Shown here in pieces: positions 40,347-57,684 of a stretch of 64,000 bases of DNA; positions within the stretch are counted from its first letter, which is position 1, and the number at the start of each line of letters is the position of its first letter. The position numbers and the translations under genes are program-made. The notes under the pieces were generated by a model. That model saw only the letters and a list, made by a program, of their open reading frames with translations. It did no database searches and was not told the DNA's origin. This stretch comes from a bacterium (GTDB lineage: Bacteria > Patescibacteriota > Minisyncoccia > UBA6257 > GWB1-50-10). The DNA is taken from the NCBI GenBank assembly GCA_021812365.1, contig JAKANQ010000002.1, positions 16,953 through 80,952 of the forward strand. Direction: 5' to 3'.

Positions 40347-41930
40347 ATGCGAGAAAAGATACTCATCGCCCTCAAGAAGCGCATTCCCGAAGATGTGCGC
40401 GTTGATGTTTCCATTGCGGAAAATAAAGCATTCGGGCATTACAGCAGCAATGTTTCATTTAAACTTGCGAAAATAAGGAATAAAGCGCCTCGCGAGATTG
40501 CGGAAGGACTCTCTCTCTCGCTCTCAAACGAAAAAGAATTTGAGAAGGTTGAGGTTGCGGGCGGCGGATTTTTGAATTTCAGACTTTCACAAAAGGTTCT
40601 TGCACATGAACTCAAGGATATTTTGAAAAAAGCTGATGCATACGGTTCGAAAAAACTGTCGAAAGCAAAACAGAAAAAGATTCAGGTTGAATATATCTCC
40701 GCAAATCCCACGGGACCGCTCACACTCGCGAACGGACGAGGTGGGTTTTTAGGAGATGCGATAGCGAACGTACTCGCAGCGGCGGGGCACAAGGTTGAGC
40801 GAGAATATTATGTGAATGATACCGGAAATCAGGTGCGTACCCTTGGCCTCTCTCTTATCGCCTCGGCGGGATTCATTCCTTTTGAAGAGACCTTCTACAA
40901 GGGGGAGTATGTGAAGGATTGGGCGCTTGCCAACAAGACAACGGTGAAGAAGTTCAAGGATAACCCTGAACATTTAGGCGGTTTGGCGGCAAACCATTTT
41001 TTGAAACTCATTAAAACGGCCATAGAAAAAAAGGCTGGAATTCATTTTGACAGGTATACCTCGGAAAAAAATGATGTGCACGGCAAGAAGTTCATTGAGA
41101 AAGCGCTCGAGCTGTTCAAAGAGCTCGGGGTGTCGTATGAAAAAGATGGCGCGTTGTGGCTTAAGACGACCGATTATGGCGATGATAAAGATAGGGTACT
41201 TGTGACAAGCGAGAAGACGCCGACATATTTCCTTGCCGACGCAGGGCATTATTTCGAGACGAAGGTGAGAGGATTTGATGAGAAGATCCTTATTTTGGGC
41301 CCCGACCACTATGGATATGTCAGTCGTATTCAGGCGGCGGCAACGATAGTCGGGCTTCCAAGTTCAAAGGTCATCATCACGCAGGCCGTCCGTCTTATAC
41401 GGGGAGGAAAGGAGGCGAAGATGTCGAAGCGAAAAGGATTATTCGTCACGTTTCAGGAATTAATTGAGGACGTTTCACCGGATGCCGCACGTTTCTTTTT
41501 CCTTATGATATCGCCCGACACGCATATGGATTTTGATCTTGACCTTGCAAAGGAAAAATCACTCAAAAATCCGGTATTTTATGCGCAGTATGCATACGTG
41601 CGCGCAGTAAGCATCATTAAAAAGACAAAAATTAAAAAAGGAAAGGAAGACCTTTCACTGTTGGGGAGCGGGGAGGACATCCACCTTATGCTAAAACTTT
41701 CCGAATTTCCTGAAATTCTTGAAGACGCGGCTGGGGATTATGCGATACATCGCATAACAAAGTACATACTTGAGCTTTCCAAGGCATTCCATAATTTCTA
41801 TGAGAAGGAACGAGTGGGTGGTGTGGATGATGAGCTTGTCCGCGCGCGCCTCGCATTGGTGGGTGCGACCGCGGTCGTATTGAAAAACGCGCTCGGTGTG
41901 CTCGGAGTGTCAACACCAAAGAAGATGTAA
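40347..41930 (+). CDS. argS: Arginyl-tRNA synthetase
   Basis: VEYISANPTGPLTLANGRGGFLGDAIANVL (ArgRS catalytic core with a degenerate HIGH). C-terminal DALR anticodon-binding domain. Confidence 0.85.
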   Translation: MREKILIALKKRIPEDVRVDVSIAENKAFGHYSSNVSFKLAKIRNKAPREIAEGLSLSLSNEKEFEKVEVAGGGFLNFRLSQKVLAHELKDILKKADAYGSKKLSKAKQKKIQVEYISANPTGPLTLANGRGGFLGDAIANVLAAAGHKVEREYYVNDTGNQVRTLGLSLIASAGFIPFEETFYKGEYVKDWALANKTTVKKFKDNPEHLGGLAANHFLKLIKTAIEKKAGIHFDRYTSEKNDVHGKKFIEKALELFKELGVSYEKDGALWLKTTDYGDDKDRVLVTSEKTPTYFLADAGHYFETKVRGFDEKILILGPDHYGYVSRIQAAATIVGLPSSKVIITQAVRLIRGGKEAKMSKRKGLFVTFQELIEDVSPDAARFFFLMISPDTHMDFDLDLAKEKSLKNPVFYAQYAYVRAVSIIKKTKIKKGKEDLSLLGSGEDIHLMLKLSEFPEILEDAAGDYAIHRITKYILELSKAFHNFYEKERVGGVDDELVRARLALVGATAVVLKNALGVLGVSTPKKM

Positions 41931-41960
41931 AAAAGAATCCCCGGATGGGGATTCTTTTTT
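41930..41960. terminator. Bidirectional rho-independent terminator
   Basis: aaaaagaatccccggatggggattctttttt. Confidence 0.65.
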
Positions 41961-42342
41961 ATTTTTCCAAGACCTCTTTTACCTTGCTTATTACATCTTC
42001 TATCTTCCAATCCGCTTTCACGAGGTAGAACACGGGTTCTGTTTCCACGACTTCCCGCATTATCTTATCATCAGGATTCAAATTGGTAAGGATGATGACG
42101 GGGACCGATTTACCCCAGTCTCCGCTTTTACGGAGTTCATCAAGCATCGTCATACCACTCATTCTAGGCATGATGATATCGAGAAGGATGAGGTCGGGTT
42201 TCTCTTGGAGTGCTATCACAAGCCCCTCTTCACCATCTTTTGCTTCAAGTGCTTTCATGCCCTCATGCCGGAGTTTTTCTACGAGGGCCATTCGTACAGG
42301 AGCATGGTCTTCGATGACGAGGATTGTTTTGGTGGTTTGCAT
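41959..42342 (-). CDS. Stand-alone response-regulator receiver (CheY-like)
   Basis: ILVIEDH...LILLDIIMPRMSGM...VPVIILT. Receiver Asp pocket. No output domain. Confidence 0.8.
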   Translation of the reverse strand: MQTTKTILVIEDHAPVRMALVEKLRHEGMKALEAKDGEEGLVIALQEKPDLILLDIIMPRMSGMTMLDELRKSGDWGKSVPVIILTNLNPDDKIMREVVETEPVFYLVKADWKIEDVISKVKEVLEK

Positions 42343-42386: not shown

Positions 42387-45338
42387 CTATGTCGAAAGAG
42401 TGAGTGTTTTACTTCCTTCCCTTGCCTCCATTCCAGAGAGTGGAATGGTTACATAGAACGTGGTGCCCTCATTTTCTTTTGAAGTAAATCGAATTGTTCC
42501 GCCGCTGTTATCCATGATGGATTTCACGATATAGAGGCCTAATCCGGTTCCGTCAGTTTTTGTCTCTATCGCGTTATCGGCTCTGAAGAGTTTGCCGAAT
42601 ATTTTTGGTTGCGAGGCCTTTGGAATCCCAATTCCGTTATCGGAAACGGAGAAAAGAAATTCGTTTCCATCTTTTTTCAGTTCTACGTGGACCAGCCCGT
42701 TTTCCTTCGTGTATTCTATCGCGTTTGCAATGAGATTTTGGAATACTATTTTCACAAGATTTTTGTCGGCATTTATGAGGGGAATATCTTTTCCAAATGA
42801 CGTAGTAAGCATTATGCGCCTTTTTATAGTGAGCGGTTCCAGTTCTTTCAGTGTTATTCTACATATCTCAACAAGGTCAGACGGTTCCGGCTCAATGGAG
42901 AAGGTACCTAGTTCGATGCGGGACACGCTGAGGAGCGCGTTCACAAGCGACACGAGGCGTCGGCCTCCATTATGAATCTCCTCAATATATTGTTTTTGTT
43001 TTTCAGTTATTGTCCCCGCGTCTCCTCCAAGAAGCATTTCGGCATACCACGTAATGGTAGTAAGGGGCGTGCGAAGTTGGTGAGAGGCAAGTGACACGAA
43101 TTCCGTTTTCGCGCGGTCTATCGCTTTTTCTTTGGTGATATCTCGCTCAATTGCCACAAAGAATTGTACGTTACTTCTTTCATCAAGAATGGGGGATATA
43201 TCAATGAGGGCCACGTATTCTTCCCCATTCTTCCTCTTGTTGCGAATCTCACCGGTGAATAATTTCTTTTGGTTTTTAATTCTGTCCCACATATTCTTGT
43301 AGAATATCTTTGGCATAAGCCCTCCCCATATCTTCCCTGCTTTTTGTCCAAGCATCTCTTCTATTGAATATCCTGTTATTTTTTCGGCGGCTTTATTCGC
43401 ATACTGCACTACGCCTTCCGGATCGGTGATGATGATGTGGTCTGAGGCTGATTCAACCGCAAGTTTGAATTTTTGCAGTTCGAAATAGTTATTGCGTAAT
43501 GTCTCTTCGCCGCGCTTTTGGATGGTTATGTCTTGGACTAGTGCTTGAAGATATGGGCGGTCGGCAACCTCAAATCTGTTTAGGGAAACCTCCGCATCAA
43601 ATAGCGTGCCGTCCTTTCGAAGGTGTTTCCAGTAAAAACGTTGTGGATGTCCTGCGAGCGCCGCATTGATGAATGCCCTTGCCATTGTTGCGGAGTCTTC
43701 GCCGTTTGGTTGCTTGGTTGGACTGAACTCTTGCGGCGTGTGGCCTATTATGTCCTCCATTTTTTCACTTTTGAACATTGATAGAGCCATTTTGTTGCAT
43801 TCGATGAAGATATTGCCATCCATTATAAATATCGCATCGTTGGCTCCCTCAAAAAGCGTGTGGTATCGATTTTCCGCCTTCTCAAGGTTATTCGCATATT
43901 CTTTCAGTATTGTCTCCGTTTTTTTTCTTTCAGTGATATCACGAAGAATCAATTGAACCCCAACGATCTTATTGTTCTCGTGTATTGCCGCGGCATTCGC
44001 TTCTATGGTGAGCAGATTTCCCGATCTTTGCTTTATTTCCAATTCAAATGCGCTTCCTTTTTGTCCTCCAAGAACATTTGCGAACTCTTCCAGTGCTTTG
44101 TGGTTGAATATGTCGGAAAGCGCTCCGATTTTGGTAAAATGTTTCCCTCTCACTTCCTCAAGGGGGTAGCCGAACAGCGCAATAGCGGCTTCGTTTGCGG
44201 AAATGAATGAACCGTTTGTATCAAGGGTGATAATCGCATCCGGTGCTGTTTCGATGAGGCGCCGCTCGGTCTCACTCAGTTTTTTTGCAAGGTCTTCCGC
44301 GAGCCCCCTTGCGCGCGATTCCGAGTGCTTAAGCGTGTGGTAGATGCCAATGAGGAGAATGCCGGAAAAAATGATCGCAACGGCCGCAAGCGGTGGAATA
44401 TATCTTTGAAACAGCGTTATATTTTTATCTGATGGTTCTGTAATGCGCAGCGTCCAATTGATGCCATTGAATTTGAACGGCGTGATTTCCTCAAAGATGC
44501 TTTTCTGATTTCCATTCGTCTTACCGAAATAGTATATGAGATTTTTATCGGTAAGTTCGGTGTTTTGCGTGGTGTCATAAAAACCAACACTCACGTCTTC
44601 AGATGGTTTGGTATATTTGGTGAGGACAAGATCAAAGAGCTGTTTTATGTTCACTTCCATTGACACCAATCCCGCAATTGCCGCTCTTCGTTCATCTATA
44701 GTGGAGACAAGCATCCCGTTTCTATAGATAGGAAGATAAATAAATAGGTATGGGGCACCCCCTTCATAAAAACCGGGCGCTATGGTGAATTCGCCCGTAT
44801 CTCTTGCTTTTTCTATCGCGGCTCGCATATTTGCATTGGTAAATTCATCAAGACCAAAATATCTGCTGATATTTTCCTGCGGCTCCATGTAATTTACCAC
44901 ATAGTATTCCTCACGATCTCCCGCGGGAGAGATGGTGAAGTTCGGAAATCCTTTTGGATTGGTTGAGGTGTCTTTGCGTACGGAATCAATGAATAATACC
45001 CTCTCTTTCCCCTTAACCCGTTGGATATACATGAAGCCATTGGTGGCGGGAAAAAGGTCCGAAGAGCGTGACCCTTGTATGAAGTTTGACCATTCGTTTC
45101 GTTCCACGGATTTACTTGCGGCAAAGAGGCCGTGAAGCCCCTGAAGGGATTTCAGGTATCCTGAGAGCCCCGCTTCTCCAAGGATATCGTCGTGTACGCC
45201 CCTTGCCTCATTTTTAAAGTAAGCCTCTGCTTCATTGTAGATATATGAACGAGTGGAAAAATAAATAAAAACGCCCATCGCAACGATTGTGAATACGAGC
45301 GCAAAACTCAGGACTATTGTGGTATATTTGCGAATCAT
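42387..45338 (-). CDS. Large sensor histidine kinase (TM, periplasmic sensor, about 3 PAS/PAC, HisKA, HATPase_c)
   Basis: H-box SLASHQLRTPLTTI. N and G boxes ...DNGIGIPKASQPKIFGKLFRADNA...GTGLGLYIVKSIM. Repeated PAS-like segments. N-terminal TM and a second TM after about 300 aa. Confidence 0.8.
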   Translation of the reverse strand: MIRKYTTIVLSFALVFTIVAMGVFIYFSTRSYIYNEAEAYFKNEARGVHDDILGEAGLSGYLKSLQGLHGLFAASKSVERNEWSNFIQGSRSSDLFPATNGFMYIQRVKGKERVLFIDSVRKDTSTNPKGFPNFTISPAGDREEYYVVNYMEPQENISRYFGLDEFTNANMRAAIEKARDTGEFTIAPGFYEGGAPYLFIYLPIYRNGMLVSTIDERRAAIAGLVSMEVNIKQLFDLVLTKYTKPSEDVSVGFYDTTQNTELTDKNLIYYFGKTNGNQKSIFEEITPFKFNGINWTLRITEPSDKNITLFQRYIPPLAAVAIIFSGILLIGIYHTLKHSESRARGLAEDLAKKLSETERRLIETAPDAIITLDTNGSFISANEAAIALFGYPLEEVRGKHFTKIGALSDIFNHKALEEFANVLGGQKGSAFELEIKQRSGNLLTIEANAAAIHENNKIVGVQLILRDITERKKTETILKEYANNLEKAENRYHTLFEGANDAIFIMDGNIFIECNKMALSMFKSEKMEDIIGHTPQEFSPTKQPNGEDSATMARAFINAALAGHPQRFYWKHLRKDGTLFDAEVSLNRFEVADRPYLQALVQDITIQKRGEETLRNNYFELQKFKLAVESASDHIIITDPEGVVQYANKAAEKITGYSIEEMLGQKAGKIWGGLMPKIFYKNMWDRIKNQKKLFTGEIRNKRKNGEEYVALIDISPILDERSNVQFFVAIERDITKEKAIDRAKTEFVSLASHQLRTPLTTITWYAEMLLGGDAGTITEKQKQYIEEIHNGGRRLVSLVNALLSVSRIELGTFSIEPEPSDLVEICRITLKELEPLTIKRRIMLTTSFGKDIPLINADKNLVKIVFQNLIANAIEYTKENGLVHVELKKDGNEFLFSVSDNGIGIPKASQPKIFGKLFRADNAIETKTDGTGLGLYIVKSIMDNSGGTIRFTSKENEGTTFYVTIPLSGMEAREGSKTLTLST

Positions 45339-45375: not shown

Positions 45376-45741
45376 CTATGAGATGCGGGCAGCCTCTATC
45401 TTCTCTACGATTTCGTTGATGGGGTGCTGTGATTTCACAAAATAATCTTTTGCTCCGAGTGCGAATGCCTTCTTAATGTTCTCGTCCTCCCCAAGATTTG
45501 AGAGAACGATGACGGGGACCATTCCAAGTTCAGGATCCGCTTTTAAATCTTTCAATACGGAAAACCCGTCTTTTTTAGGAAGAATAAGATCCAAGAGAAC
45601 CAATTCCGGTTTATATGCGTGGGCAAGAGCAATCGCCGCTTCGCCGTCTTTTGCCACTTTTGTCTCAAATCCAGACTTATCCAGTTTTTCTTTGAGTACG
45701 AACGCAAGGGATTCCTCATCTTCAACAATTAAAATTTTCAT
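45376..45741 (-). CDS. Stand-alone response-regulator receiver (CheY-like)
   Basis: MKILIVEDEESLAF...LVLLDLILPKKDGFSVL...VPVIVLSNLGEDEN... Confidence 0.8.
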   Translation of the reverse strand: MKILIVEDEESLAFVLKEKLDKSGFETKVAKDGEAAIALAHAYKPELVLLDLILPKKDGFSVLKDLKADPELGMVPVIVLSNLGEDENIKKAFALGAKDYFVKSQHPINEIVEKIEAARIS

Positions 45742-45793: not shown

Positions 45794-47512
45794 CTATTTA
45801 TCTATCTCCGAGATGTTTGAGGTGATATATTTTTCAGCTCTTTCAATGGAACTCACGGCACGTCTTAGCAGGAATTCGAGGGTTGTCATCTCCTCTGGTG
45901 TGAGTTTCTTGTCCCCGAACGCTTCTATGGCTTTTGCAAGATCTGTCTTTGTGGTTTTGAATGCGTTTACCACGTCGCGCTGGGCGATAAGTACGCGTAA
46001 CGCGCGCCGTTTTTTTAGATTGGCATTAAGGAGATATCCCCCTGAAAAACTAAACACGAGAATTGCGATGAGGAACCAAATAAGCTCCGTTTGTGTTATA
46101 GAGAGTCCGAAAAGTGAGAGAACTGGTCTTTCTTTTACGGATATTGTCGGGGTATCGATTGGTATGCTTTGAGCTCCACGCGTATCGCTCGCGATTACGC
46201 GAACCATGTATGTTCCACTTCCAAGCGCTTTATCGAATGTGGCTGACCACGCGCCACCCGCGTCCACGTCTACAGTTTTATCAGCCAGGATATTTCCCGC
46301 ATTATTTTTGAGTGCGAGAAGTATTTTTGAGTTTGGAATTGCTGTTCCGCTCAGTCCTACCCTTCCTTCATTTGCGTACACATCTCTTGTTACCGTTGAA
46401 ATTGAGGGGGGTGCTATCGGGGTGATGGTGATATCGGCTGTTCCTTCGGTGATGTTACCACCCGCATCTTGAGCATCGATGCGTATGTGATGCGTTCCCG
46501 GGGTTTGGGGAGGAAGCCTGTATGATGTGCTTGTGGCTACCGCTATTTCGTTGCCGTCCACTAAAATATGATATTCGACAGTACTTAATGAATCCCCGCT
46601 CTCATAGGTAAGGATGGGGGAGGGATTATCGGTTGATGTTCCGAAGTCCTCCTTGATGGTGAAGGGGAGTGGCGGAACGGTATCAATCGCGAGACGGTAG
46701 TGGCTTATCGGACCCCAGCCGACATTATTCTTAAATTGAACATGAAGATACCACACGCCATCACTGAGCGCGGGGAATGTCTTGTTATCGAAGAGCCCTT
46801 CCGATCTCTGGGGGATACCCCTCGGATCTTTATTGATGAGCGTTGCAACCTCGCTTACGTCATTTGGAAGCGGCCATTGTGCGGTAAAATCAGAGGAAAG
46901 GTTGTACCATTTTTGTTGGTCCGGATAGAGGGATACTGAGATAATTGGTGCCGCGGGAAGTTTTGCGGCCACGACCGGCGGACGAGTGATTTGAGTCGGT
47001 TGTGGAGCTATTGTGGTTATTTCTCCCGTGGCCGCACTCGTGATATTCACACCCTTCGTCGCCCTCATCACATTAGTTCCACTTCCATCACTTGCGGTTA
47101 TCGCGCCGTCGGTAAAGGTGATGGTTGAACTACCGACTCCTTTCACTTTAAACACAACTCTGAATACCTCAAGAGAGGAACCGGTGAATCCATTGGATGA
47201 GCCACCAAGAAACGTTATTTTTCCCGCGTCATTCGAAAAGGTTGGCGCCTGGAGCCAAAAATTGAATACCGAATTGCTCGTATCCGTTTTTGATATTGAG
47301 AGCACGTTCGGAGAAAAGGAAATCGTGCCTTGTGCCGCATTCACTCCAACGCCTTCGGTATCCATTTTTATGTCCGCGGTAAATTCCTGACCTATTGGAA
47401 AAGCTTGTTTGTCCAGCGAGATGGAAAACGTCGCGGCGTGCGCAAAGATAGGGAGGGCCGCGAAGGCAATGCTCGCGAGAAGTACTCGTATTTTATGCAT
47501 GGAAGAAGTCAT
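45794..47512 (-). CDS. Cell-surface anchoring protein: signal peptide, cohesin-like domain, Ig-like domains, C-terminal TM anchor and cytoplasmic tail
   Basis: Signal peptide MTSSMHKIRVLLASIAFAALPIFAHA. Residues about 27-150 (ATFSISLDKQAFPIGQEFTADIKMDTEGVGVNAAQGTISFSPNVLSI...GKITFLGGSS...SLEVFRVVFKVKGVGSSTITFTDGAI) follow the cohesin beta-sandwich sequence pattern. TM helix LIWFLIAILVFSFSGGYLL near the C-terminus. Confidence 0.6.
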   Translation of the reverse strand: MTSSMHKIRVLLASIAFAALPIFAHAATFSISLDKQAFPIGQEFTADIKMDTEGVGVNAAQGTISFSPNVLSISKTDTSNSVFNFWLQAPTFSNDAGKITFLGGSSNGFTGSSLEVFRVVFKVKGVGSSTITFTDGAITASDGSGTNVMRATKGVNITSAATGEITTIAPQPTQITRPPVVAAKLPAAPIISVSLYPDQQKWYNLSSDFTAQWPLPNDVSEVATLINKDPRGIPQRSEGLFDNKTFPALSDGVWYLHVQFKNNVGWGPISHYRLAIDTVPPLPFTIKEDFGTSTDNPSPILTYESGDSLSTVEYHILVDGNEIAVATSTSYRLPPQTPGTHHIRIDAQDAGGNITEGTADITITPIAPPSISTVTRDVYANEGRVGLSGTAIPNSKILLALKNNAGNILADKTVDVDAGGAWSATFDKALGSGTYMVRVIASDTRGAQSIPIDTPTISVKERPVLSLFGLSITQTELIWFLIAILVFSFSGGYLLNANLKKRRALRVLIAQRDVVNAFKTTKTDLAKAIEAFGDKKLTPEEMTTLEFLLRRAVSSIERAEKYITSNISEIDK

Positions 47513-47528
47513 TGATTTTATTATACAT

Positions 47529-50500
47529 TTATTTATTTAGCGTGCGGGCAAAGATACTGAGGTCCTGAATATCAATCACTCCATCGCCATTAAAATCCAA
47601 ACTTTTTCTTGTTGCGGGGTCTTTTGAAAGCCAGCGCGCGAGGAAGATGCTGAGGTCGCTTGCGTTCACCACCCCATCGCCGTTCAGATCTGTTTTTGGC
47701 ACAAAAAGATTAGTCACGAGAAATGTGCGCTCGACTGAGGAATCGCTTCTTTCTCCACTGCTGTTCGATTGCCATACGCGCACGGTGTGAGTGCCGAGCT
47801 GAAGGTCCAATGTGTTAAAGGCTATCTTGTATTCTCCGGAACTTCCCGCAACTACAATATTTGGAATTGATTTTCCATCGATAGATGCTTCGATGGTATT
47901 TCCAGGCGAGGCAAACCCCGTGATTCCCAAGAACCCTCCTTTAAGAACCGCCTGCTGCGTAAAGCCGAGCGTAGGCGGCAGAAACACATCTCGCACAATG
48001 AGGGTTTGGTTCGCGTTGATGGGATACACTTTTGTTTGCGTGGGGCGTCCGCTTTCATCAGTCGCCGAGAGGAAGTATTGCTGTATGCCAGGCGTGGTGT
48101 CGTTGAAACGAATTGAGAACGCTCCATCCGCTCGTGCGGTAGCGCCTCGGCGTACCGGAATATTTCCATTTGAGACGCCCAATATGGTTAGTTTTGCGCC
48201 TGGAAATGCGGTGCCCGAAAAGATCACCGTTGAACGAATGAGTGCGGGCTCACCTCCTGCACTTACCGTCATTACGGGCGTGCTTGAGAAGGTGACGGTC
48301 TGTGTTGACGATACATCAAGCGTGGTTGAGGCGGTATCAAGGAGGCTGAGCGTCACCGTTTCCGCAACTGTATCGGTGATTGTTTTTGTGCCTATGCCGT
48401 TCGTAACGGTGACAATTCCACCGCCAACTGCCGAGCCTGAGACGACAAGGGTAACGCTATTGTTGTAGGTGGTATCAAGATTTCCACTATTGTCTTCCAC
48501 TCGTATTGTGACTGTGGTATTCGTTCCTACGAGAGTGTCATTGGGTTTTATTATCGTGAATCGAGTTGCAATTATGGGGGTGTTGGAAACAGTCACTGAT
48601 TGTGATGCATCCGCAATTCCCACCGCGCCATCCGGCGTCGATGAATTATCCGACGCGGTTATGGTCCATGTGCCCACCGCCGTGTCATAATACCAGAATG
48701 ATGCGGTTGATGCTCCGTCCGCTATTGTTCTAGATGCGATAGGGCTTCCGCCGCTTGCGCCGCCGTAGAAAGCACTCGAAGTACTATTTGAATACATATA
48801 GAATGTATTACTACCCGCCGTTACCAAATTTCCAAAACTGTCCTTTCTTGTCACCGTGTATCCGAGCCGCGTGCCCGCGGTCATATTGCCGGGGTTATCA
48901 ATAAGGAATTGTGAGGTGGTTGCGGGGGATACCGTCACCGATTGCGATGCGTCCGCGATTCCCGTCGCGCCATCGGGCGCTACCGCGTTGTCGGACGCGG
49001 TGACAACCCACGTTCCCGCTTTTCCTTCCGAGTACCAGAATTGAGTTGCGGAACTGCCATCCGTGATCTGTACCGATGTTATCTGGATGCCCCCACTCAA
49101 TGCGCTATAGAATGCGCCAAGCCCTCCTGTTGCATTTGAATACAAATGAATCGTGTCCGTACCCGCCGTTACCAAATTTCCAAAACTGTCCTTTCTTGTC
49201 ACCGTGTATCCGAGCCGCGTGCCCGCGGTCATATTGCCGGGGTTATTGAGAATGAATTGTGCGGTCGGTCCCGTGGTGAAGGTAACGGTCTGTGTTGACG
49301 ATACATCAAGTGTGGTTGAGGCTGTCGCGGTAAGCGAGAGTGTTACTGTTTCCGCTTTCGTGTCGGTGATGTTGACCGTGCCCACACCATTTACGATGGT
49401 GAGTACTACGCCATTTTGAGGAGTTGCCAATCCCGATGTTTTTAGCGTGATATCGGTGCTGTTGTTATACGTGGTATCAAGATTTCCTGAGTTATCCTGT
49501 GCTTGCACTGTGACCGGTATTGTACTGCCCACCACGCCGTCAGTCGGCTTTAGGATGACTATGCGAGTTGCGATGATTGGCGCGGCATTTACCGTCACCG
49601 ATTGCGATGCGTCCGCGATTCCCGTCGCGCCATCCGGCGCTACGGCATTGTCGGAAGCAGTTATGGTCCATGTGCCAACTTGTTCATCGTAGTACCAAAA
49701 ATTCGCGGAGGATGAGCCATTTGTGATTACCATTGAAGTCACGAGATTGCCGCCCGCACTCGCGTCATAGAATGCCTTTGTCGCTCCCGTTGAGTTCGAG
49801 TAAAGGTGCGCGGTATCGCTGCCTACGGTCACTGTATTTCCGAATATGTCTTGTCTTGTCACCGTGTATCCGAGCCGCGTGCCCGCGGTCATATTGCCGG
49901 GGTTATTGAGAATGAATTTTCCTGTAGATGCCGGTACGATCACGATTGCGTTCGTGCCGTCAATTATCCCCGTCGCGCCATCCGGTGCTACCGCGTTGTC
50001 GGACGCGGTTATGGTCGCGGAGCCTGCAAGTTCGTCGTAGTACCAGAATTGCGCGGATGAGGAGCCTGGGAGTATCGCGACGTTTGTTATCGTGGTGCTT
50101 CCTGTCGCACTATCGAAGAATTTTTTCATCCCCCCCGCGGAACTGCTATAGAGATATGCGGTGCTTGTACCTACGGTAGAAAGATTTCCGAATTGGTCCT
50201 TTCGCGTGACGGAATAGTCCAAGCGTGTTCCTGCGACCATCGATGTCTGATTTGTGAGTGAGAATTGAGCTGCGGCTCCCGGAGTTATCATCACAATGCT
50301 CGTTCCATCTTTTATCCCCGTCGCGCCATCCGGTGCTACCGCGTTGTCGGACGCGGTTATGGTCGCGGAGCCTGCAAGTTCGTCGTAGTACCAGAATTGG
50401 GCGGATGAGGTTCCATTTTGAACTGTTATTGAGGTGATGATGTTTCCTCCGCTCGCCGCATCGTAAAATCGTTTCGCACTCCCCGCGGAATCGCTATAAA

Positions 50501-52661
50501 GATAGAATGTCTCACTTCCCATCGTTTTCAGGTTGTTGTATTGATCTTTTCGTGTGACGGCGAACATTCCTCTTGTCCCCGCAACGGTACTACTTACGCC
50601 CGACAAGAAGAGCTGTGCAGTCGCTCCGGGTGAGAATATCACGTCTTGTGTCGAGCTTACATCAAGGCCCGTTCCTTGCGTATCGGAGAGTGAGAGGTGG
50701 ACCGTTTCCGCGACCATGTCGGAGATAGTGGTAGTACCTACGCCGTTTACGATATTCACGAGGCCGCCACCCGTCGCGGAACCGGATTTCAAAAGGGTCA
50801 CATCTTGCTGATATGTTGTTGCAATGGCCCCCGCATTATTTTGTGCTTCTATGGTGACCATTATCGGCGCGTCGACTGTGCCGTTGGCGGGCGGGAGAAT
50901 GACGAATTTTGTGGGGGTTATTGGTTTCGGCATTCCAAGTTGAAATGCGCCGAATCCAGTTATACCTCCCGCTGCCGTGCTTACGGATGTTCTTGTCCCC
51001 ACCGTTGGATAGGACCATGCCGAACCTGCATATTGTCCGACAATAAGGTCTCCTGTATTTACCCCGGAATCAAGGTCCCCAGGATTAACGAAGGTGAAGA
51101 TCGCGCTGTAATTATCAAATGCTATTGCCGAGCTTGTGGCTGTCCAATACCGATTCACGCTTTTTGTTCCGTCTATATTGGAAGCGGCGATATTCGGATG
51201 GTCTCCTGCTGTTGTGCTGAATGTCAGGTCTCCGCCGCTTGTTACATTACCGAACGCAATGCTTACGGGAGCGTAGTTTGATGAGTCGCCAATTTCGAAT
51301 ATCTTACTCGTTGCTCCCACACCAATATATTTTCTAAGATTGCCGATGATGTGTCCCGATGTGCGTGCTACGTTTCCCGTTCCGCTTATATAGATATCGT
51401 TTGCGCCCGTTACGACATTGCCCGAGGTTAGTGTGAGTGTTCCATCAACGCGCGTACCTGCGCCGGAGAGCGTGGCTGCCCCCGCGCCTTTATTTATCGT
51501 AAGATTTGAATAGGTGAGGGCGGCAACTGTTTGCGCAATGCCCGCAACGTATTCCACCGTCGTGCCCGCAGAGATGTTTCTTGTGGTAAAGGAGGGGAAT
51601 GCGGTGGCTGAACTTGAGCTGCCCAGCACGAATGTTCCCGACGCGAGATTCAGAGTTCCTGTCCCCGTAAGCTGGAAACCGCCATCATTGAATATGCTGT
51701 TTGCAATCGTTGCTCCGATGGTAAACGGTTTTGTGCCAACCGATTTCGCAGCATTCAAGGTAACTCCATTTGCGTTTTCAATCAAAACGCCACCACTGCC
51801 AGGCCACGGCGAGATGAATTCACTGCCGGTCGTTTGCGCCGCGGAACCTTTGTACTCCAATGTTGATGCTGTGCCTGGACTGAGTGTACCCGTAAGAATG
51901 GTCGTTGCCGATCCCTGCATTGAGAGCTTGCCACTTACCGCCGTCGTGCCTGTTATGAATGTCTTTGCACCGCTTCCCGAAAGCGTAAGATTTGCATATG
52001 TTGTCGGTTTAAGCGATTGGTCGGCGCCATCGTAATTCACGATGTTTCCCGCTGCGGTTGCGGTGAGTGTTACATTTGCCGCGGGTGTGAACGTTCCACT
52101 TATGTTCACCACCGCGTTGGTGCCCTGTGTCCATATTGCGGTTCCTCCGGTCCTCATATAATTTCCGTTGAGATATATGGTTCCGTTATTGGTAACCGTT
52201 TTACCGGCTGAATCAATATCATTGTTGATTGTGAGATTGGCGGATGAAAGGAAAGAAAAGTTTTGAGCCGCAAGTATGATGCTATTTATGGTACCGTTCC
52301 CATCTATGGTTTGCCCCTTAGTATTCATTTTTATCGTTGCCGTTCCGCCATTCACATCGCCATTCACCGCGATGTTGCCGTTTTCGGTGATAATTGCCGT
52401 GCTATTTATGTTCAGTGTGGCGCCCGAATTTACCGTGAGGCCTGCATTGGTGATGTTCGTACCGATGGTCACGCTGTTGCCGCCCGTTGTGGCAATGATC
52501 GCGGAGTCGTTATTGGTAGGAGCAATGCCCCCTATCCACGTTCCGCCGGCCGTCCAATTACCCCCCGTTGCGGTGCTTGTTCTTACTGCCGCATCCGCAG
52601 TCGGCACAAGAAGCACCGATGCAAAAAGCATCGCTGTACCGAGTAATAGAGTCTTTTTCAT
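47529..52661 (-). CDS. Giant secreted repeat protein (1710 aa) with beta-helix-like N-region, nested tandem Ig-like repeats and C-terminal type-I dockerin
   Basis: Signal peptide MKKTLLLGTAMLFASVLLVPTADA. G/T/N-rich N-terminal region. Six copies of an about 100-aa repeat (...FWYYDE..GTWTITASDNAVAPDGATGI...), plus three copies of a larger repeat (PIIATR..I.KP.DG.VG...). C-terminal DLNGDGVVNASDLSIFLARWL...DFNGDGVIDIQDLSIFARTL is a textbook duplicated dockerin Ca-binding segment. Confidence 0.7.
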   Translation of the reverse strand: MKKTLLLGTAMLFASVLLVPTADAAVRTSTATGGNWTAGGTWIGGIAPTNNDSAIIATTGGNSVTIGTNITNAGLTVNSGATLNINSTAIITENGNIAVNGDVNGGTATIKMNTKGQTIDGNGTINSIILAAQNFSFLSSANLTINNDIDSAGKTVTNNGTIYLNGNYMRTGGTAIWTQGTNAVVNISGTFTPAANVTLTATAAGNIVNYDGADQSLKPTTYANLTLSGSGAKTFITGTTAVSGKLSMQGSATTILTGTLSPGTASTLEYKGSAAQTTGSEFISPWPGSGGVLIENANGVTLNAAKSVGTKPFTIGATIANSIFNDGGFQLTGTGTLNLASGTFVLGSSSSATAFPSFTTRNISAGTTVEYVAGIAQTVAALTYSNLTINKGAGAATLSGAGTRVDGTLTLTSGNVVTGANDIYISGTGNVARTSGHIIGNLRKYIGVGATSKIFEIGDSSNYAPVSIAFGNVTSGGDLTFSTTAGDHPNIAASNIDGTKSVNRYWTATSSAIAFDNYSAIFTFVNPGDLDSGVNTGDLIVGQYAGSAWSYPTVGTRTSVSTAAGGITGFGAFQLGMPKPITPTKFVILPPANGTVDAPIMVTIEAQNNAGAIATTYQQDVTLLKSGSATGGGLVNIVNGVGTTTISDMVAETVHLSLSDTQGTGLDVSSTQDVIFSPGATAQLFLSGVSSTVAGTRGMFAVTRKDQYNNLKTMGSETFYLYSDSAGSAKRFYDAASGGNIITSITVQNGTSSAQFWYYDELAGSATITASDNAVAPDGATGIKDGTSIVMITPGAAAQFSLTNQTSMVAGTRLDYSVTRKDQFGNLSTVGTSTAYLYSSSAGGMKKFFDSATGSTTITNVAILPGSSSAQFWYYDELAGSATITASDNAVAPDGATGIIDGTNAIVIVPASTGKFILNNPGNMTAGTRLGYTVTRQDIFGNTVTVGSDTAHLYSNSTGATKAFYDASAGGNLVTSMVITNGSSSANFWYYDEQVGTWTITASDNAVAPDGATGIADASQSVTVNAAPIIATRIVILKPTDGVVGSTIPVTVQAQDNSGNLDTTYNNSTDITLKTSGLATPQNGVVLTIVNGVGTVNITDTKAETVTLSLTATASTTLDVSSTQTVTFTTGPTAQFILNNPGNMTAGTRLGYTVTRKDSFGNLVTAGTDTIHLYSNATGGLGAFYSALSGGIQITSVQITDGSSATQFWYSEGKAGTWVVTASDNAVAPDGATGIADASQSVTVSPATTSQFLIDNPGNMTAGTRLGYTVTRKDSFGNLVTAGSNTFYMYSNSTSSAFYGGASGGSPIASRTIADGASTASFWYYDTAVGTWTITASDNSSTPDGAVGIADASQSVTVSNTPIIATRFTIIKPNDTLVGTNTTVTIRVEDNSGNLDTTYNNSVTLVVSGSAVGGGIVTVTNGIGTKTITDTVAETVTLSLLDTASTTLDVSSTQTVTFSSTPVMTVSAGGEPALIRSTVIFSGTAFPGAKLTILGVSNGNIPVRRGATARADGAFSIRFNDTTPGIQQYFLSATDESGRPTQTKVYPINANQTLIVRDVFLPPTLGFTQQAVLKGGFLGITGFASPGNTIEASIDGKSIPNIVVAGSSGEYKIAFNTLDLQLGTHTVRVWQSNSSGERSDSSVERTFLVTNLFVPKTDLNGDGVVNASDLSIFLARWLSKDPATRKSLDFNGDGVIDIQDLSIFARTLNK
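48370..50600. repeat. Coding tandem DNA repeats (about 330-345 bp units, about 6 copies) inside the giant gene
   Basis: cgtgtatccgagccgcgtgcccgcggtcatattgccggggtt recurs at about 48856, 49201 and 49861. Repeated shadow ORFs on the opposite strand. Confidence 0.6.
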
Positions 52662-52768: not shown

Positions 52769-53464
52769 TTATCTCGCCCTTTCCCACGGTCTTATCTCCC
52801 GTGCTATGAAGACCTGTTCATTTTCATAGGCGCCGATAAGTTTTACTTCTGAACCTACGGCACGGAGCCCATTTTTTCTCCAATCAGCGTCGTCTTCTAT
52901 GATGACCCACTCATTGTGAGAGAAGTCTTCCAGTATGAAGATGTCATCATTTACGATTTCGGTTATGGTGCCTGACAAGAGTCCGAGTCCGGGACTGTTC
53001 CAGACCGCGAGCTCGTTATGGGGGAGATTGGTATACGCCGGAATATAGCGCAGAAGCGCTTCATCAATGCGCTTACCCGCGCCGAACATATAGAATACTG
53101 TTCCAAGTATCACGCTCACCAAAAGTATAATGGCGAAGAATACGAGCGTGGCGTAGCGATAACCGGTTTTGGTTTGTCGCACTATCGCGTAAGTGAGACC
53201 AAGGAAAAGCGCCGCGGCAAAGAGCCAGAGATAGGGGAAGACCGTGGTCACATATGCCCAAAGAGTTTTTCCAAGGTATTCATAAATATCCCAATCATTA
53301 TTATGAACGATGTGGAGGAGGGTGCTGACCGCGAGCGCTCCAATGAGCATGGAAATGACCACAAGTGTCCAGAGCACGATATTGCGTATCACAAACTTCC
53401 AACGCGCCACCGGAGTTATGTTCTTTTCTTCTATTGTTTTCAATACGTTATCGCTTATCGACAT
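52769..53464 (-). CDS. Polytopic membrane protein, putative anti-sigma factor (co-transcribed downstream of ECF sigma, 17-nt overlap)
   Basis: Four TM segments and a C-terminal extracytoplasmic domain. Call is by position only. Confidence 0.35.
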   Translation of the reverse strand: MSISDNVLKTIEEKNITPVARWKFVIRNIVLWTLVVISMLIGALAVSTLLHIVHNNDWDIYEYLGKTLWAYVTTVFPYLWLFAAALFLGLTYAIVRQTKTGYRYATLVFFAIILLVSVILGTVFYMFGAGKRIDEALLRYIPAYTNLPHNELAVWNSPGLGLLSGTITEIVNDDIFILEDFSHNEWVIIEDDADWRKNGLRAVGSEVKLIGAYENEQVFIAREIRPWERAR

Positions 53465-54059
53465 ATGAGTGTGTTCTATTTTGCAGCTCCTCTCGTAATT
53501 TCACCTTTGCTCGATTGATGAGTGTTCCAACAGTGCCGACCGGTTTCTTCAAAATATCCGAGATCTCTTCATAGCTTTTTTCTTCAAGAAATTTGAGAAT
53601 GAGCACCTCGCGGTATTTTTCAGATATATTGGAAAGCGCGGCACGGACACTCTCGCTTTCCATTTTCCTCAACATCTCTTCCTCAAGGTCCGATGAGTCC
53701 GCGATGTTCTCGAGAAAAAAATGTTCTTCTTCGGTGCGGGGAGTGAGCGGTAAGCGGCTTATCTTTCTCAATGCATTTATCGCTTCATTATGGGCGATGC
53801 GGTATATCCAGGATGAGAATTTGAGTGAAGCATCGAAGTTGTTCAAATGCTCGTAGGTCTTGATGAAGGTTTCTTGGACCACGTCTTCCGCGTCTTCCCT
53901 TGAGCATAGGATGATGCGTTGTACGTAGCGAATGAGTCTTTGCTCATATCGCTGCATAAGGTAGAGATAACGCTGCTTATTTTGAATTGTGAGAGCAACC
54001 AACTCCTCATCGGTTTTCTCTGAGTATGGGTTATGTTCGTTCATTCGCGGCGCGCTCAT
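53448..54059 (-). CDS. ECF-type sigma-70 family RNA polymerase sigma factor
   Basis: Region 2 EDAEDVVQETFIKTYEHLNNFD. Region 4 HTH YREVLILKFLEEKSYEEISDILKKPVGTVGTLINRAKVKLRE. Confidence 0.75.
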   Translation of the reverse strand: MSAPRMNEHNPYSEKTDEELVALTIQNKQRYLYLMQRYEQRLIRYVQRIILCSREDAEDVVQETFIKTYEHLNNFDASLKFSSWIYRIAHNEAINALRKISRLPLTPRTEEEHFFLENIADSSDLEEEMLRKMESESVRAALSNISEKYREVLILKFLEEKSYEEISDILKKPVGTVGTLINRAKVKLREELQNRTHSYVDKR

Positions 54060-57100: not shown

Positions 57101-57684
57101 AGTCATTAGCGCAGAATGCAAAGGCATCCGTGCATCTTGAGGATTGGCCGAAGGCGGAGAAGCGGCTGATAGACGAGAGCTTGATTGAGGGGATGGCGGA
57201 GGTGCGTCTTGCGGCAAGCGTTGCGCTCGCGAAACGCGCGGAGAAGGGAATAAAAGTACGCCAGCCGCTCGCAGAACTGAAACTGAAGAGTATAAAACTT
57301 GAGGGAAAGAAGGCGCTTCTCGAGATATTGAAGGATGAGGTGAATGTAAAGAAGGTCTCATTCAACAAAGACCTCGCGGAAGACGTGGAACTTGATACGA
57401 ACATCACGCATGAGCTTGTGGAGGAAGGATTACTTCGTGAATTGGTGCGTATGGTGCAGGACTTGCGCCAGGATGCGGGATTCTCACCAAAAGACGCCAT
57501 TGTGCTGCACGTTGATGTTCCTGAGGAATTGAGTTTTGTCTTGCGCAAGAATGAGGCGTTCGCAAAACGAGAGGTGAATGCCAAGGTCATTGAGTTCAAG
57601 CGCGTTGAACGATTTGATGCGGAGATAGCCTCGAAACTCGGTGATTTCAATGTCTGGCTCGCGGTACGGAAGAATAAGAAATAG
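54160..57684 (+). CDS. ileS: Isoleucyl-tRNA synthetase with an inserted histidine-phosphatase (PGAM-like) domain
   Basis: HIGH-region PPTANGRPGIHHVLARS. KMSKSKGN. Editing (CP1) domain. Type-2-like C-terminus. An extra about 200 aa between CESCKT and CKKCGS carries LLIRHGEAENN and IVSHEDP, the two catalytic His motifs of the histidine phosphatase superfamily. Confidence 0.9.
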   Translation: MLKNTEKFSLPEVEEKVLAFWDDNKIFEKSLSKNKPAKGRGGKKFVFYEGPPTANGRPGIHHVLARSYKDVVLRYKTMSGFSVPRKGGWDTHGLPVELEVEKALGLKSKKEIEKYGVAAFNKKCRESVWKYKDEWEKLTRRMGFWLDMENPYITYKNEYMETIWWTFSQIAEKKLLYKGHKIVPWCTRCGTALSSHELALGYKEVEDTSVYVKFKVKKGQHIGKSLVADNKTYILSWTTTPWTLPGNVALAVGEGIEYAAIEAGEGSKKETLILASPRLGILDMPHTVLGTMKGKELVGVEYEPLFSIDVFIHGSAKDVSYRVYPADFVTTTDGTGVVHTAVMYGEDDYKLGKKFGLPEVHTVNEQGMFVEAVPEFAGMYVKAKDTEEKILAALSHKNLLLKKELYAHEYPFCWRCSSPLLYYGRHSWFIEMSKLRTSLQKENKNINWIPENIREGRFGEWIREAKDWAISRERYWGTPLPIWECESCKTVRVIGGVKDLESTQKKSTNRYLLIRHGEAENNVKNVVSSWPEKARYHLTPKGRAAVLKLAKKLSRTKIDIIFASDLLRTKETANLLKEELEVPVIFDERLREINVGEFNGSLIKEYQDFFGTKMEKFTKAPEGGETLTELRTRMFGFVKEMEKKYSGKTIAIVSHEDPLWLLTSAMQGWTDEQIIAEKEGHLGAFLGAGEMREEVFRVLPRDESGMFDLHKPYIDSVVFPCKKCGSEMKRIPEVADVWFDSGAMPFAQAHYPFEHSKSLDFPADYISEGMDQTRGWFYTLLAVSTLLGRGTPYKNVISLGLILDKNGQKMSKSKGNIVSPWDMIQKYGIDVTRWYFYTVNPPGEAKKFDELELAKVSRQFFALIYNSFVFFDLYSDRKYIPKTTPKATNILDKWIMARLHETISEATEHMEKYEMGDAARLIEEFVGDLSRWYIRRSRRRLQKPESKKEFEAVSTVFGYTLIQLAKLMAPFSPFFSEALYKSLAQNAKASVHLEDWPKAEKRLIDESLIEGMAEVRLAASVALAKRAEKGIKVRQPLAELKLKSIKLEGKKALLEILKDEVNVKKVSFNKDLAEDVELDTNITHELVEEGLLRELVRMVQDLRQDAGFSPKDAIVLHVDVPEELSFVLRKNEAFAKREVNAKVIEFKRVERFDAEIASKLGDFNVWLAVRKNKK

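Follow-up and report, generated by a model that had tools for sequence, protein, structure and literature searches.

Two adjacent genes encode a cohesin-bearing membrane protein and a dockerin-ended giant protein

The window, by which we mean the whole 64-kb stretch of DNA analyzed here, carries two adjacent open reading frames (ORFs) on the minus strand, separated by 16 nt and located where a first-pass annotation of this DNA had placed them (Table 1). One encodes a type I membrane protein, here called the anchor, and the other a much larger secreted protein, the cargo or giant. The only cohesin of the window lies in the anchor and its only dockerin in the giant. The source had been described as a CPR-like genome with a wall-less envelope. 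The first part agrees with the named homologues and loci, which belong to Patescibacteria/Paceibacterota apart from MAGs that databases label 'Saccharibacteria' or 'Gammaproteobacteria'. The second part does not hold: genes for a class A PBP, a Mur ligase and MurB all lie in the window.

Table 1. Features of the locus in order of their position in the window (residue numbers refer to the respective protein; a slash marks signal peptide cleavage).
Feature	Position	Strand	Basis
Terminator-like hairpin, strong, 15-bp stem and T-run	41928..41961	(-)	Sequence
Single-domain response regulator gene, directly downstream of anchor	45376..45741	(-)	ORF; Response_reg in the identical locus L001
Anchor gene, 572 aa, type I membrane protein with N-terminal cohesin	45794..47512	(-)	ORF; full-length AF2 model
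Anchor cytoplasmic helical hairpin, residues 498-572	45797..46021	(-)	Helices 474-531 and 539-571 (AF2)
Anchor TM helix, residues ~474-497	46022..46093	(-)	Hydropathy; start of long helix 474-531
Anchor stalk, three beta-sandwich domains, residues 191-462	46127..46942	(-)	AF2 strands; Pfam
Anchor flexible linker, residues 161-190	46943..47032	(-)	Low pLDDT, no secondary structure
Anchor cohesin domain, residues 27-160	47033..47434	(-)	PF00963; AF2; Foldseek
Anchor signal peptide, residues 1-26 (…ALPIFAHA/A)	47435..47512	(-)	Hydropathy; helix 2-23 in AF2 model
Cargo (giant) gene, 1710 aa, secreted modular surface protein with dockerin at its end	47529..52661	(-)	ORF
Cargo dockerin, residues 1657-1710, F-hand repeats DLNGDGVVNASDLSIFLARWL and DFNGDGVIDIQDLSIFARTL, 31 residues apart	47532..47693	(-)	PF00404
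Cargo conserved C-terminal Ig-like module, residues ~1481-1656	47694..48221	(-)	Kept in 64-78 of 81 related cargos
Cargo stalk, about eight tandem Ig-like repeats, residues ~571-1480	48222..50951	(-)	Window-vs-self BLAST
Cargo variable head, residues ~25-570, boundaries approximate	50952..52589	(-)	Degenerate repeats, then non-repetitive segment
Cargo signal peptide, residues 1-24 (MKKTLLLGTAMLFASVLLVPTADA/A)	52590..52661	(-)	Sequence reading; hydropathy peak at 1-24

The N-terminal domain of the anchor has a cohesin fold

The N-terminal domain of the anchor matched the Pfam Cohesin profile PF00963 over residues 32-154 (24.4 bits, E 3.6e-5, profile positions 4-136 of 139), a marginal score only just above the curated gathering cutoff of 24.1 bits. 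Within the anchor family the same profile called 57 of 85 members at E<=0.01, with a best E of 1.2e-9, and missed 28 at E 0.01. The marginal score is backed by the predicted structure and its Foldseek matches; structure comparison was needed because a search of the single cohesin sequence against PDB sequences returned only spurious weak matches, to an ABC substrate-binding protein and an S-layer protein. The AF2 model of residues 25-170, built with 113 homologues, reached a pLDDT of 92.8 and a pTM of 0.85 and is all beta, with 10 strand elements. Cohesins are elongated beta-sandwiches (jelly-rolls) of about nine strands that bind the dockerin on the 8-3-6-5 strand face. When the model was compared with the PDB, the best 50 matches were all cohesins (probability 1.00, TM-score 0.60-0.75), covering types I, II and III as well as non-cellulosomal kinds. 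Profile and fold thus agree with the first-pass reading of this domain as a cohesin. The domain identity itself is not new, as family members are already named 'cohesin domain-containing protein' in databases.

The cohesin ranks among the two best-conserved regions of the anchor; 35 of its 134 columns reach >=90%. These columns include N58, A59, Q61 and T63 in strand 3 and the loop T139-A-S-D-G-S-G-x-N147; conserved polar residues fall in strand 3 (A59, Q61, T63) and, behind strand 7, in a loop (S141-N147), which indirectly suggests that a dockerin may bind the 8-3-6-5 face here too.

Besides the cohesin, the anchor has a linker, an Ig-like stalk, a TM helix and a cytoplasmic tail

The anchor belongs to a family of >270 homologues of ~570 aa each, and >100 of the top 150 representatives (50% identity level) matched it over the full length; at that identity level the family comprises several hundred clusters. 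Two hydropathy peaks were found, at residues 8-33 (the signal peptide, cleaved at AHA/A) and 464-499 (the TM segment), the maximum of 2.23 lying at residue 477. The protein had been annotated with a signal peptide and a C-terminal TM anchor; both segments are present, but the TM helix is not C-terminal, as a tail of 75 aa comes after it. The motif KKRR follows the helix directly, and the tail is therefore placed in the cytoplasm by the positive-inside rule. The signal peptide sequence is poorly conserved across the family. The tail, which is basic and helical, has near-invariant residues at R512, D513, Y562 (100%) and I570, with an overall conservation below that of the ectodomains, and no known signalling domain was matched in it by Pfam and NCBIfam HMMs (window anchor) or by Pfam HMMs (85 family members).

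In the full-length AF2 model (pLDDT 85.7) the linker behind the cohesin has a mean pLDDT of ~53 at residues 161-170, falling below 50 at 165-168, and it varies in both length and sequence among homologues. The stalk is made of D2 (Y_Y_Y-like), D3 (Ig) and D4 (Big_13, 46.9 bits in the window anchor), in this order; across the family, Pfam called Big_13 in 85/85, Big_6 in 32/85 and Y_Y_Y in 23/85 members. Foldseek matched the stalk only to generic Ig/FN3 rods, among them adhesin extender regions, GhpA and receptor ectodomains, and the fold search with the full-length anchor found nothing beyond such rods and no informative match for the cytoplasmic tail. We rejected a scaffoldin anchored by SLH domains or sortase: the anchor has a TM helix with a cytoplasmic tail, Pfam found SLH in none of 85 family members, and by reading the C-terminal sequence of the window anchor lacks an LPXTG sortase signal.

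The giant protein ends in a dockerin and begins with a variable head

Dockerin_1 (PF00404) matched the C-terminus of the giant at residues 1657-1709 with 36.4 bits (E 5.9e-9, profile positions 2-57 of 57), above the curated gathering cutoff of 22.9 bits; the NCBIfam model dockerin_GC gave 25.9 bits, under its cutoff of 29. The repeats DLNGDGVVNASD and DFNGDGVIDIQD, quoted in the first-pass annotation as a duplicated F-hand dockerin, are both there as quoted, and its call is confirmed. Type I dockerins comprise two F-hand repeats of ~22 residues with Ca2+ ligands at positions 1, 3, 5, 9 and 12. The profile of the family dockerins matched solved cellulosomal dockerins, among them 2y3n_B, 4fl4_A, 5lxv_B, 1daq and 2vn6_B, with E values of 2e-7 to 2e-3. 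Both repeats share the consensus D1 N3 D5 G6 D/N9 D12 with invariant S14 and F16, and the Ca2+-ligand positions are kept in both repeats of 68 family dockerins as follows: D1 in 68/68, N3 in 60-63, D5 in 63-67, D/N9 in 62-68 and D12 in 68/68. The repeats are spaced by 31 residues in 55 of the 68. The canonical Ser-Thr recognition pair at positions 10-11 is absent from these 68 dockerins, in which position 10 is mostly I/V and position 11 varies (S, K, R, Q or T). This pair is typical of Clostridium thermocellum type I dockerins and not universal, so that its absence leaves dockerin membership intact. The invariant S14/F16 in place of the Ser-Thr pair suggests a distinct specificity subtype.

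The signal peptide, with a cleavage site deduced from an AxA motif, is the sole hydrophobic segment of the giant by hydropathy. The head contains Gly/Thr/Asn-rich degenerate repeats at residues 50-440 that look beta-helix-like by eye, and the HMM scan found in it no Pfam family and no recognized adhesin domain. Only 6-8 close relatives share residues 1-250, and none shares residues 251-500. The stalk repeats have a period of ~116 aa with copies 45-68% identical, and occur in about half of the related cargos. Homologues of the C-terminal module carry Big_6 (PF17936) together with Dockerin_1. At E<=1, Pfam and NCBIfam HMMs detected no glycoside hydrolase or CBM family in either the anchor or the giant. 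An Abhydrolase call on the giant, present in precomputed annotation, was not reproduced in our Pfam scan.

Cohesin and dockerin genes recur as a one-to-one pair

Of 86 related loci, 83 share one layout: a single cohesin anchor whose next gene upstream, in the same orientation, is a single dockerin-ended gene, with typically 0-60 nt between them. No further cohesin or dockerin copy was found within 10 kb on either side of the pair in those 83 loci. The three exceptions are two contig edges and one rearrangement; at locus L058 the anchor has no adjacent cargo. Eighty of the 83 came from the genome scan and represent 80 different Patescibacteria assemblies from many candidate phyla. The reciprocal test agreed, with all six family-type dockerins from dockerin-only searches adjoining an anchor. 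The dockerin-only metagenome scan returned mostly generic dockerins, with three of the family type among the matches listed, and a homologue search with the dockerin profile returned 24 short fragments, of which three on long contigs (L129-L131) are split or truncated cargos adjoining anchors. Further cargos, from genes in other parts of the genome, may likewise use the cohesin. The first-pass proposal of a receptor-ligand pair, formed by a cohesin-bearing membrane anchor and a dockerin-ended secreted giant, thus finds support in the HMMs, in the cohesin fold and in the adjacency seen from both sides.

The two genes differ in what they conserve. Cargo lengths lie between 420 and 2737 aa, some partial genes exceeding 3316 aa, and the heads are unalignable among related loci; pairwise identity averages 0.45 among the cohesins and 0.48 among the dockerins versus 0.31 for the cargo Ig module. 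The anchor and the C-terminus of the cargo are conserved, and the head and size of the cargo variable. A mirror-tree comparison of cohesin and dockerin over 71 loci gave a raw correlation of r=0.52, and specific co-evolution was not detected in these loci: with the flanking Ig domains as controls the partial r was 0.04, a value reached or exceeded in 484 of 2000 permutations. An interface that is just conserved would be expected to give this outcome; it is neutral and gives no support to pairing.

The missing mirror-tree signal would also suit a reading in which cohesin and dockerin are not binding partners. The dockerin would then be a Ca2+-stabilized terminal module or a glycan binder, the cohesin-like domain would bind another target such as a host surface or an envelope protein, and adjacency would reflect co-function. 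Many non-cellulosomal dockerins are said to lack a cognate cohesin (Peer et al., 2009, as cited in PMC10066038), and glycan targeting has been speculated for one dockerin protein (PMC10633639). The strict adjacency (83/86 loci, 6/6 reciprocal cases) is, however, hard to explain unless the modules need each other, and cohesin and dockerin are among the most conserved parts of their proteins. Mutual binding is, to our knowledge, the sole established function of this domain pair. We regard non-binding as very improbable and infer that the cohesin and the dockerin bind each other, presumably in a Ca2+-dependent manner.

If the tether is accepted, its cargo could still be a structural component of the envelope, such as a coat, a fibril layer or a spacer present on every cell, instead of an adhesin specific to a host. 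Each of the 80 assemblies has a single locus, often embedded among housekeeping genes (e.g., IleRS, ArgRS and SmpB), and the cargo is mostly made up of Ig-like rods without a recognizable binding or enzymatic domain, as might be expected of such a component. Moreover, the dockerin-domain envelope protein SEML1_0315 is essential in the cultivated Saccharibacterium Southlakia epibionticum (PMC10633639). Yet the extreme variability in head and length (420 to >3300 aa) fits diversifying, partner-facing surfaces better than a lattice, and no S-layer-type or SLH domains were found in the window pair (HMM scan) or the anchor family (85 members). We therefore consider a structural cargo unlikely, though by no means far-fetched, and favor an adhesin or contact fiber.

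Two-component genes often accompany the pair

In the window, the giant and anchor genes are followed by RR, HK and RR genes. The hairpin listed in Table 1 is the sole convincing terminator downstream of this run, and no comparable hairpin separates the giant from the anchor or the anchor from the two-component genes, from which the run appears to be co-transcribed. An upstream sigma factor and a multi-TM protein were rejected as parts of the module, being conserved in only 7/51 loci. The response regulator is best described as a gene associated with the tether.

The gene order raises the question of whether the anchor is a signalling receptor, in which load on the cohesin-dockerin pair, or its occupancy, would be passed on by TM helix and hairpin to the neighbouring two-component system. 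An RR or HK gene comes directly after the anchor in 55 of 82 loci as well as in L129 and L131, and before the pair in L130 and L058; together with the terminator-free run from anchor to RR-HK-RR in the window and the near-invariant residues of the helical hairpin, this would suit a relay. On the other hand, 27 of the 82 loci have no two-component gene beside the anchor, the tail has neither a known signalling domain nor the conservation of the ectodomains, and synteny alone may be inherited gene order. A signalling receptor thus seems improbable to us, and tethering is the function that we ascribe to the anchor.

Discussion

We consider it likely that the two genes form a dedicated surface-tethering module of Patescibacteria (Paceibacteria/Parcubacteria-type CPR), whose cargo would most likely be an adhesin or contact fiber. 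All related genomes but one, where the sequence sufficed for a check, have the pair, and these ultra-small bacteria probably use it to keep a rapidly evolving protein at their surface. Both proteins would be exported by Sec, and the anchor would be retained in the cytoplasmic membrane by its single TM helix. The three Ig/FN3-like domains and the flexible linker would keep the cohesin off the membrane, presumably reaching through the peptidoglycan or beyond it. The cargo is envisaged as a large rod whose head is lineage-specific and whose Ig-like repeats vary in number. Behind them comes the conserved C-terminal module, at the end of which the Ca2+-type dockerin would plug into the cohesin of the anchor; the cargo would therefore be held non-covalently on the cell and would not diffuse away. 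With socket and plug constant, the displayed head and the stalk length could evolve freely. Host attachment, which the first-pass annotation had proposed, is a plausible role for such a module.

A more far-reaching version would make the module a conserved host-contact organelle of Paceibacteria-type CPR in which the hypervariable giant fiber sets partner specificity, and the anchor doubles as a trans-envelope sensor whose hairpin (R512, D513, Y562, I570) reports cargo engagement or tension to the RR and HK found downstream in about two thirds of loci. We give this version a low probability.

OlpA and OlpC of Clostridium (Acetivibrio) thermocellum combine a type I cohesin with SLH repeats and hold individual dockerin-bearing enzymes on the cell surface. 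The arrangement predicted here resembles theirs in that one cohesin on a cell-bound protein captures one dockerin protein without a multi-cohesin scaffoldin, and in the cohesin fold (3ul4_A and 4dh2_A are among the Foldseek matches, TM-score ~0.70-0.72). In contrast to OlpA and OlpC, the anchor has a TM helix and a cytoplasmic tail instead of SLH repeats, its cargo, a giant repeat protein without enzymatic domains, is encoded by a gene that is its constant neighbour, and the organism belongs to the CPR, the window showing no trace of a cellulolytic system. The label 'cellulosome type', given to the pair in the first-pass annotation, holds for the two modules, including the duplicated F-hand dockerin with conserved Ca-ligand positions, but fails for the composition. 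We rejected a cellulosome: one cohesin and one dockerin occur in the 64-kb window and in each of the 83 loci of ~20 kb, there is no scaffoldin, the two proteins of the window have no CAZyme or CBM domains, and a TM anchor takes the place of SLH or sortase attachment.

Cohesins and dockerins are also used outside plant cell-wall degradation, and non-cellulosomal cohesins, from Archaeoglobus fulgidus (2xdh) and from the Clostridium perfringens toxin complex (2jh2, 2vo8, 2w1n), are among the top structural matches of the anchor. Whereas those cases are isolated examples or enzyme-enzyme assemblies, the present pair is a clade-wide, syntenic 1:1 membrane tether, as predicted, for a hypervariable giant. 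Large envelope proteins with dockerins occur in other reduced-genome episymbionts, with a proposed role in adhesion: an Omnitrophota giant ORF carries nine dockerins (PMC10066038), and SEML1_0315 is a second case (PMC10633639) and, being essential, a precedent for the present module. We found no cognate cohesin named in these two papers, whereas here a candidate partner is genetically linked. The use of an Ig/FN3-like rod to present a distal head is shared with LPXTG/sortase-anchored MSCRAMM-type proteins, with the extender regions of large adhesion proteins and with the GhpA grappling hook. Unlike in Gram-positive sortase adhesins, the predicted attachment is non-covalent and split over two polypeptides, not covalent or single-chain. 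In the literature, Peer et al. (2009) aside, we found no description of a cohesin-dockerin pair in Parcubacteria, Paceibacteria, Patescibacteria or CPR. What is new here is the comparative result, a recurrent 1:1 pair with a constant anchor and a variable cargo.

With this finding, cohesin-dockerin biology would come to include a non-enzymatic 1:1 form with a TM anchor in a reduced-genome monoderm. The dockerin subtype, with its invariant S14/F16 and no Ser-Thr pair, could supply an orthogonal pair for protein engineering, and the tether is testable with two small recombinant domains of ~135 aa and ~65 aa. If functional, the two-component link would couple surface contact to signalling in a new manner. 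A large part of bacterial diversity falls within CPR/Patescibacteria, and for most of them a host-attached life is assumed; a few Saccharibacteria excepted, we know of no molecules that mediate this contact. The pair offers a concrete, clade-wide and genetically compact candidate, consisting of a constant membrane socket and a hypervariable plug-in giant. The cohesin could thereby serve as a marker for the main displayed protein of each genome, and the cargo heads could be compared with host range.

Results

A cohesin membrane anchor is encoded beside a dockerin-ended giant

The first-pass annotation had placed a cohesin-bearing anchor gene and a dockerin-bearing giant gene side by side, and both ORFs were found where claimed on the minus strand, 16 nt apart (see table). 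Profile searches of the two proteins put each above its curated Pfam cutoff: anchor residues 32-154 matched Cohesin (PF00963) over nearly the full profile span at 24.4 bits (cutoff 24.1), and giant residues 1657-1709 matched Dockerin_1 (PF00404) at 36.4 bits (cutoff 22.9). The cohesin assignment is secured despite this marginal score by an AF2 model of anchor residues 25-170 (pLDDT 92.8, 113 homologues as input), which has a cohesin fold and whose best 50 Foldseek PDB matches were all cohesins (probability 1.00, TM 0.60-0.75), comprising types I, II and III as well as non-cellulosomal ones. The duplicated F-hand dockerin claimed for the giant is present, with Ca2+-ligand positions 1, 3, 5, 9 and 12 kept in both repeats across 68 family members, and a profile of the family dockerins retrieved solved cellulosomal dockerins. 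The dockerin has no Ser-Thr pair at positions 10-11, and S14 and F16 are invariant in both repeats, which suggests that this dockerin has its own specificity subtype; its internal symmetry possibly allows a dual binding mode. No second cohesin or dockerin occurs in the window. The earlier observation of a cohesin/dockerin gene pair is thus confirmed.

Features of the gene pair, its downstream genes and the envelope genes of the window
Feature	Position	Strand	Source
Giant gene	47529-52661	minus	ORF, 1710 aa
Giant signal peptide	residues 1-24	minus	
Giant head, Gly/Thr/Asn-rich, degenerate repeats	residues ~25-570	minus	
Giant tandem Ig-like repeats, about eight x ~116 aa	residues ~570-1480	minus	
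Giant conserved Ig-like module	between ~116-aa repeats and dockerin	minus	
Giant dockerin	C-terminal end	minus	PF00404
Anchor gene	45794-47512	minus	ORF, 572 aa
Anchor signal peptide	residues 1-26	minus	
Anchor cohesin	residues 27-160	minus	Pfam, AF2, Foldseek
Anchor linker, low-confidence	residues 161-190	minus	
Anchor beta-sandwich stalk, three domains (Y_Y_Y-like, Ig, Big_13)	residues 191-462	minus	
Anchor TM helix, then KKRR	residues ~474-497	minus	
Anchor cytoplasmic helical hairpin	45797-46021 (residues 498-572)	minus	predicted
Response regulator (RR), single-domain, directly downstream of anchor	45376-45741	minus	
CHASE-PAS histidine kinase (HK), 983 aa, after first RR	42387-45338	minus	
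Second RR, after HK	41959-42342	minus	
Class A PBP (Transgly + Transpeptidase)	7246-9708	minus	Pfam
Mur ligase	20692-21945	plus	Pfam
Wzy_C/O-antigen-ligase-like membrane protein	25506-26897	plus	Pfam
MurB	26919-27896	plus	Pfam

The full-length anchor was modelled with a pLDDT of 85.7. Its most conserved regions are the cohesin, including N58, A59, Q61 and T63 of strand 3 and a near-invariant TASDGSGxN loop (residues 139-147), and the adjoining first stalk domain. In structure comparisons the stalk matched nothing more specific than generic Ig/FN3 rods. Five giant proteins of the searched library (P0144, P0217, P0259, P0281 and P0283; 4269-7336 aa) carry its domains (profile positions ~190-470) 32-46 times, so the repeat unit of the stalk is one in wide use. 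The head of the window's giant had no Pfam match. Abhydrolase_1 and Abhydrolase_4 appear in the precomputed Pfam record of the identical giant (L001, 4840-9972); direct hmmscan at E<=1 recovered neither, and we treat this assignment as unreliable.

Cohesin and dockerin genes are linked 1:1 across relatives

Relatives of the anchor form a large Patescibacteria family of nearly constant length (~560-610 aa), and databases already name some of them 'cohesin domain-containing protein'. Scanning one genome per species gave 121 relatives, from which 80 loci from 80 different assemblies were kept; named lineages include Wolfe-, Staskawicz-, Colwell-, Yonath-, Nomura-, Jorgensen-, Azam-, Giovannoni-, Adler-, Niyogi-, Harrison-, Buchanan-, Uhr-, Falkow- and Magasanik-bacteria. 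Family-specific HMMs for the two modules, run over all six frames, showed that 83 of 86 loci have a single cohesin with a single dockerin immediately upstream on the same strand, and no further cohesin or dockerin within 10 kb on either side. The gap between the two genes is typically 0-60 nt. Two of the three exceptions are contig edges; the third, L058 (7272-11620), is rearranged and is the only testable locus without cargo upstream of the anchor, which is preceded by HK and RR genes.

The linkage also holds reciprocally. In a dockerin-first metagenome scan, all three family-type matches among those listed had a family cohesin downstream, and generic dockerins of other organisms had none. 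Three further database ORFs, listed as 'dockerin-only' and located on long contigs, proved to be cargos that are truncated or split by a frameshift, each with an anchor 19-31 nt downstream, bringing the total to 6/6 among the matches listed. These counts support the reading of the two proteins as a display pair, and so strict a 1:1 linkage makes it unlikely that the two modules fail to bind one another. In a mirror-tree test, cohesin and dockerin showed no shared signal beyond what phylogeny explains (partial r 0.04), a null result that is neutral for a conserved interface.

Several loci vary in arrangement. In L130 (3896-6297; 686 aa + 98 aa) and L131 (1875-6321; 1387 aa overlapping a 106-aa ORF) the dockerin is separated from the rest of the cargo by a split directly ahead of it; the splits may reflect frameshifts from assembly or sequencing, or phase variation uncoupling cargo from plug. 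One Patescibacteria MAG cargo (L032, 9499-9813) carries two consecutive terminal dockerins (77 and 63 bits) rather than a single one. Two unrelated metagenome contigs (L113, 2-1582; L115, 4595-5023) have a generic dockerin scoring 29-36 bits and, after it, a weak cohesin-like match to the family HMM (15-20 bits); more remote gene pairs with this dockerin-then-cohesin order may occur outside the anchor family.

The anchor is constant and the cargo variable

Complete cargos measure 420-2737 aa (median 1361), and incomplete ones reach beyond 3316 aa. The last ~260 aa of the giant are common to 64-78 of 81 cargos and its Ig repeats to about half, and its head has a counterpart in the closest relatives only, or in none. 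Pairwise identities average 0.45 (cohesin), 0.48 (dockerin), 0.41 (anchor stalk) and 0.31 (cargo Ig module). Rather than a host adhesin, the cargo might be a structural fibre or general coat, a reading that leaves the tether itself unchanged.

Two-component genes often follow the anchor

In 55 of 82 loci the anchor is followed within 500 nt by the start of a two-component gene (27 single-domain RRs, 28 larger PAS/HK/hybrid proteins), and such genes accompany the anchor among loci L007-L086 and L129-L131. The anchor could also signal, and its cytoplasmic hairpin, with near-invariant R512, D513, Y562 (100%) and I570 in 85 homologues, points the same way, as a passive membrane anchor has no obvious need for it. 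The first convincing terminator downstream of the gene pair lies at 41961-41928, after the RR-HK-RR genes, and this one observation suggests that giant, anchor and RR-HK-RR genes may be co-transcribed.

Directly upstream of the giant (52769-54059, minus strand), an ECF-type sigma factor gene (Sigma70_r2/r4) overlaps that of a 231-aa multi-TM protein without a Pfam match. The two look like a sigma/anti-sigma system; they were rejected as part of the core module, as the position is kept in only 7 of 51 loci.

Other features of the window

The isoleucyl-tRNA synthetase (1174 aa; 54160-57684, plus strand) has a complete His_Phos_1 (histidine-phosphatase, phosphoglycerate-mutase-like) domain inserted inside its catalytic domain (residues 512-673, 123 bits), a fusion that is unusual among aminoacyl-tRNA synthetases and recurs in L001 and L005/L006. 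A large serine recombinase gene (Resolvase + Recombinase + Zn_ribbon_recom; 37957-39525) adjoins an HTH_3-type gene (35920-37032; weak HTH_3 match in the identical locus L001), GC content drops to 0.42-0.44 at 36-40 kb, and region 35547-39525 may be an integrated mobile element. A 477-aa ORF (1254-2687, plus strand) with a signal-peptide-like N-terminus has a sub-threshold T4SS_pilin match (25.7 bits, cutoff 26.6); its 393-aa neighbour (131-1312), with a hydrophobic N-terminus, had no Pfam match.

Discussion

A dedicated non-covalent surface tether is the best-supported reading of the gene pair. Both proteins would be exported by Sec; the anchor would stay in the membrane, its stalk and linker pushing the cohesin outward, and the C-terminal dockerin of the giant would dock into it. 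We infer the binding itself, its Ca2+ dependence and an adhesin role for the cargo, of which host attachment would be a plausible form. The premise of a wall-less envelope was not borne out: because genes for a class A PBP, a Mur ligase and MurB are present in the window, the organism makes a wall, and the Ig-like stalk would make sense as a wall-spanning spacer.

The anchor resembles OlpA/OlpC of C. thermocellum, likewise single-cohesin cell-surface anchors, whose cohesins are among the Foldseek matches. With one cohesin and neither CAZyme nor CBM, the CPR system differs in composition from a cellulosome, and the earlier 'cellulosome type' label does not fit it. Nor is the anchor an SLH- or sortase-anchored scaffoldin; no SLH match was found in 85 members of its family, and it has a TM helix instead.

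Cohesin and dockerin domains are already annotated by databases, and a passage in PMC10066038 (citing Peer et al., 2009) records non-cellulosomal examples of both. Dockerins have been noted in Omnitrophota giant ORFs (PMC10066038), and in a Saccharibacterium an essential protein of the envelope bears a dockerin (PMC10633639), the cohesin partner being named in neither case. We found no description of the present pair in Parcubacteria/CPR among the open-access papers searched. What is new is a predicted tether in which a TM-anchored cohesin is matched 1:1, in syntenic genes, with the dockerin of a hypervariable giant, and which is conserved in a large part of CPR. The tether pair offers a concrete, easily testable handle on CPR cell-surface biology.
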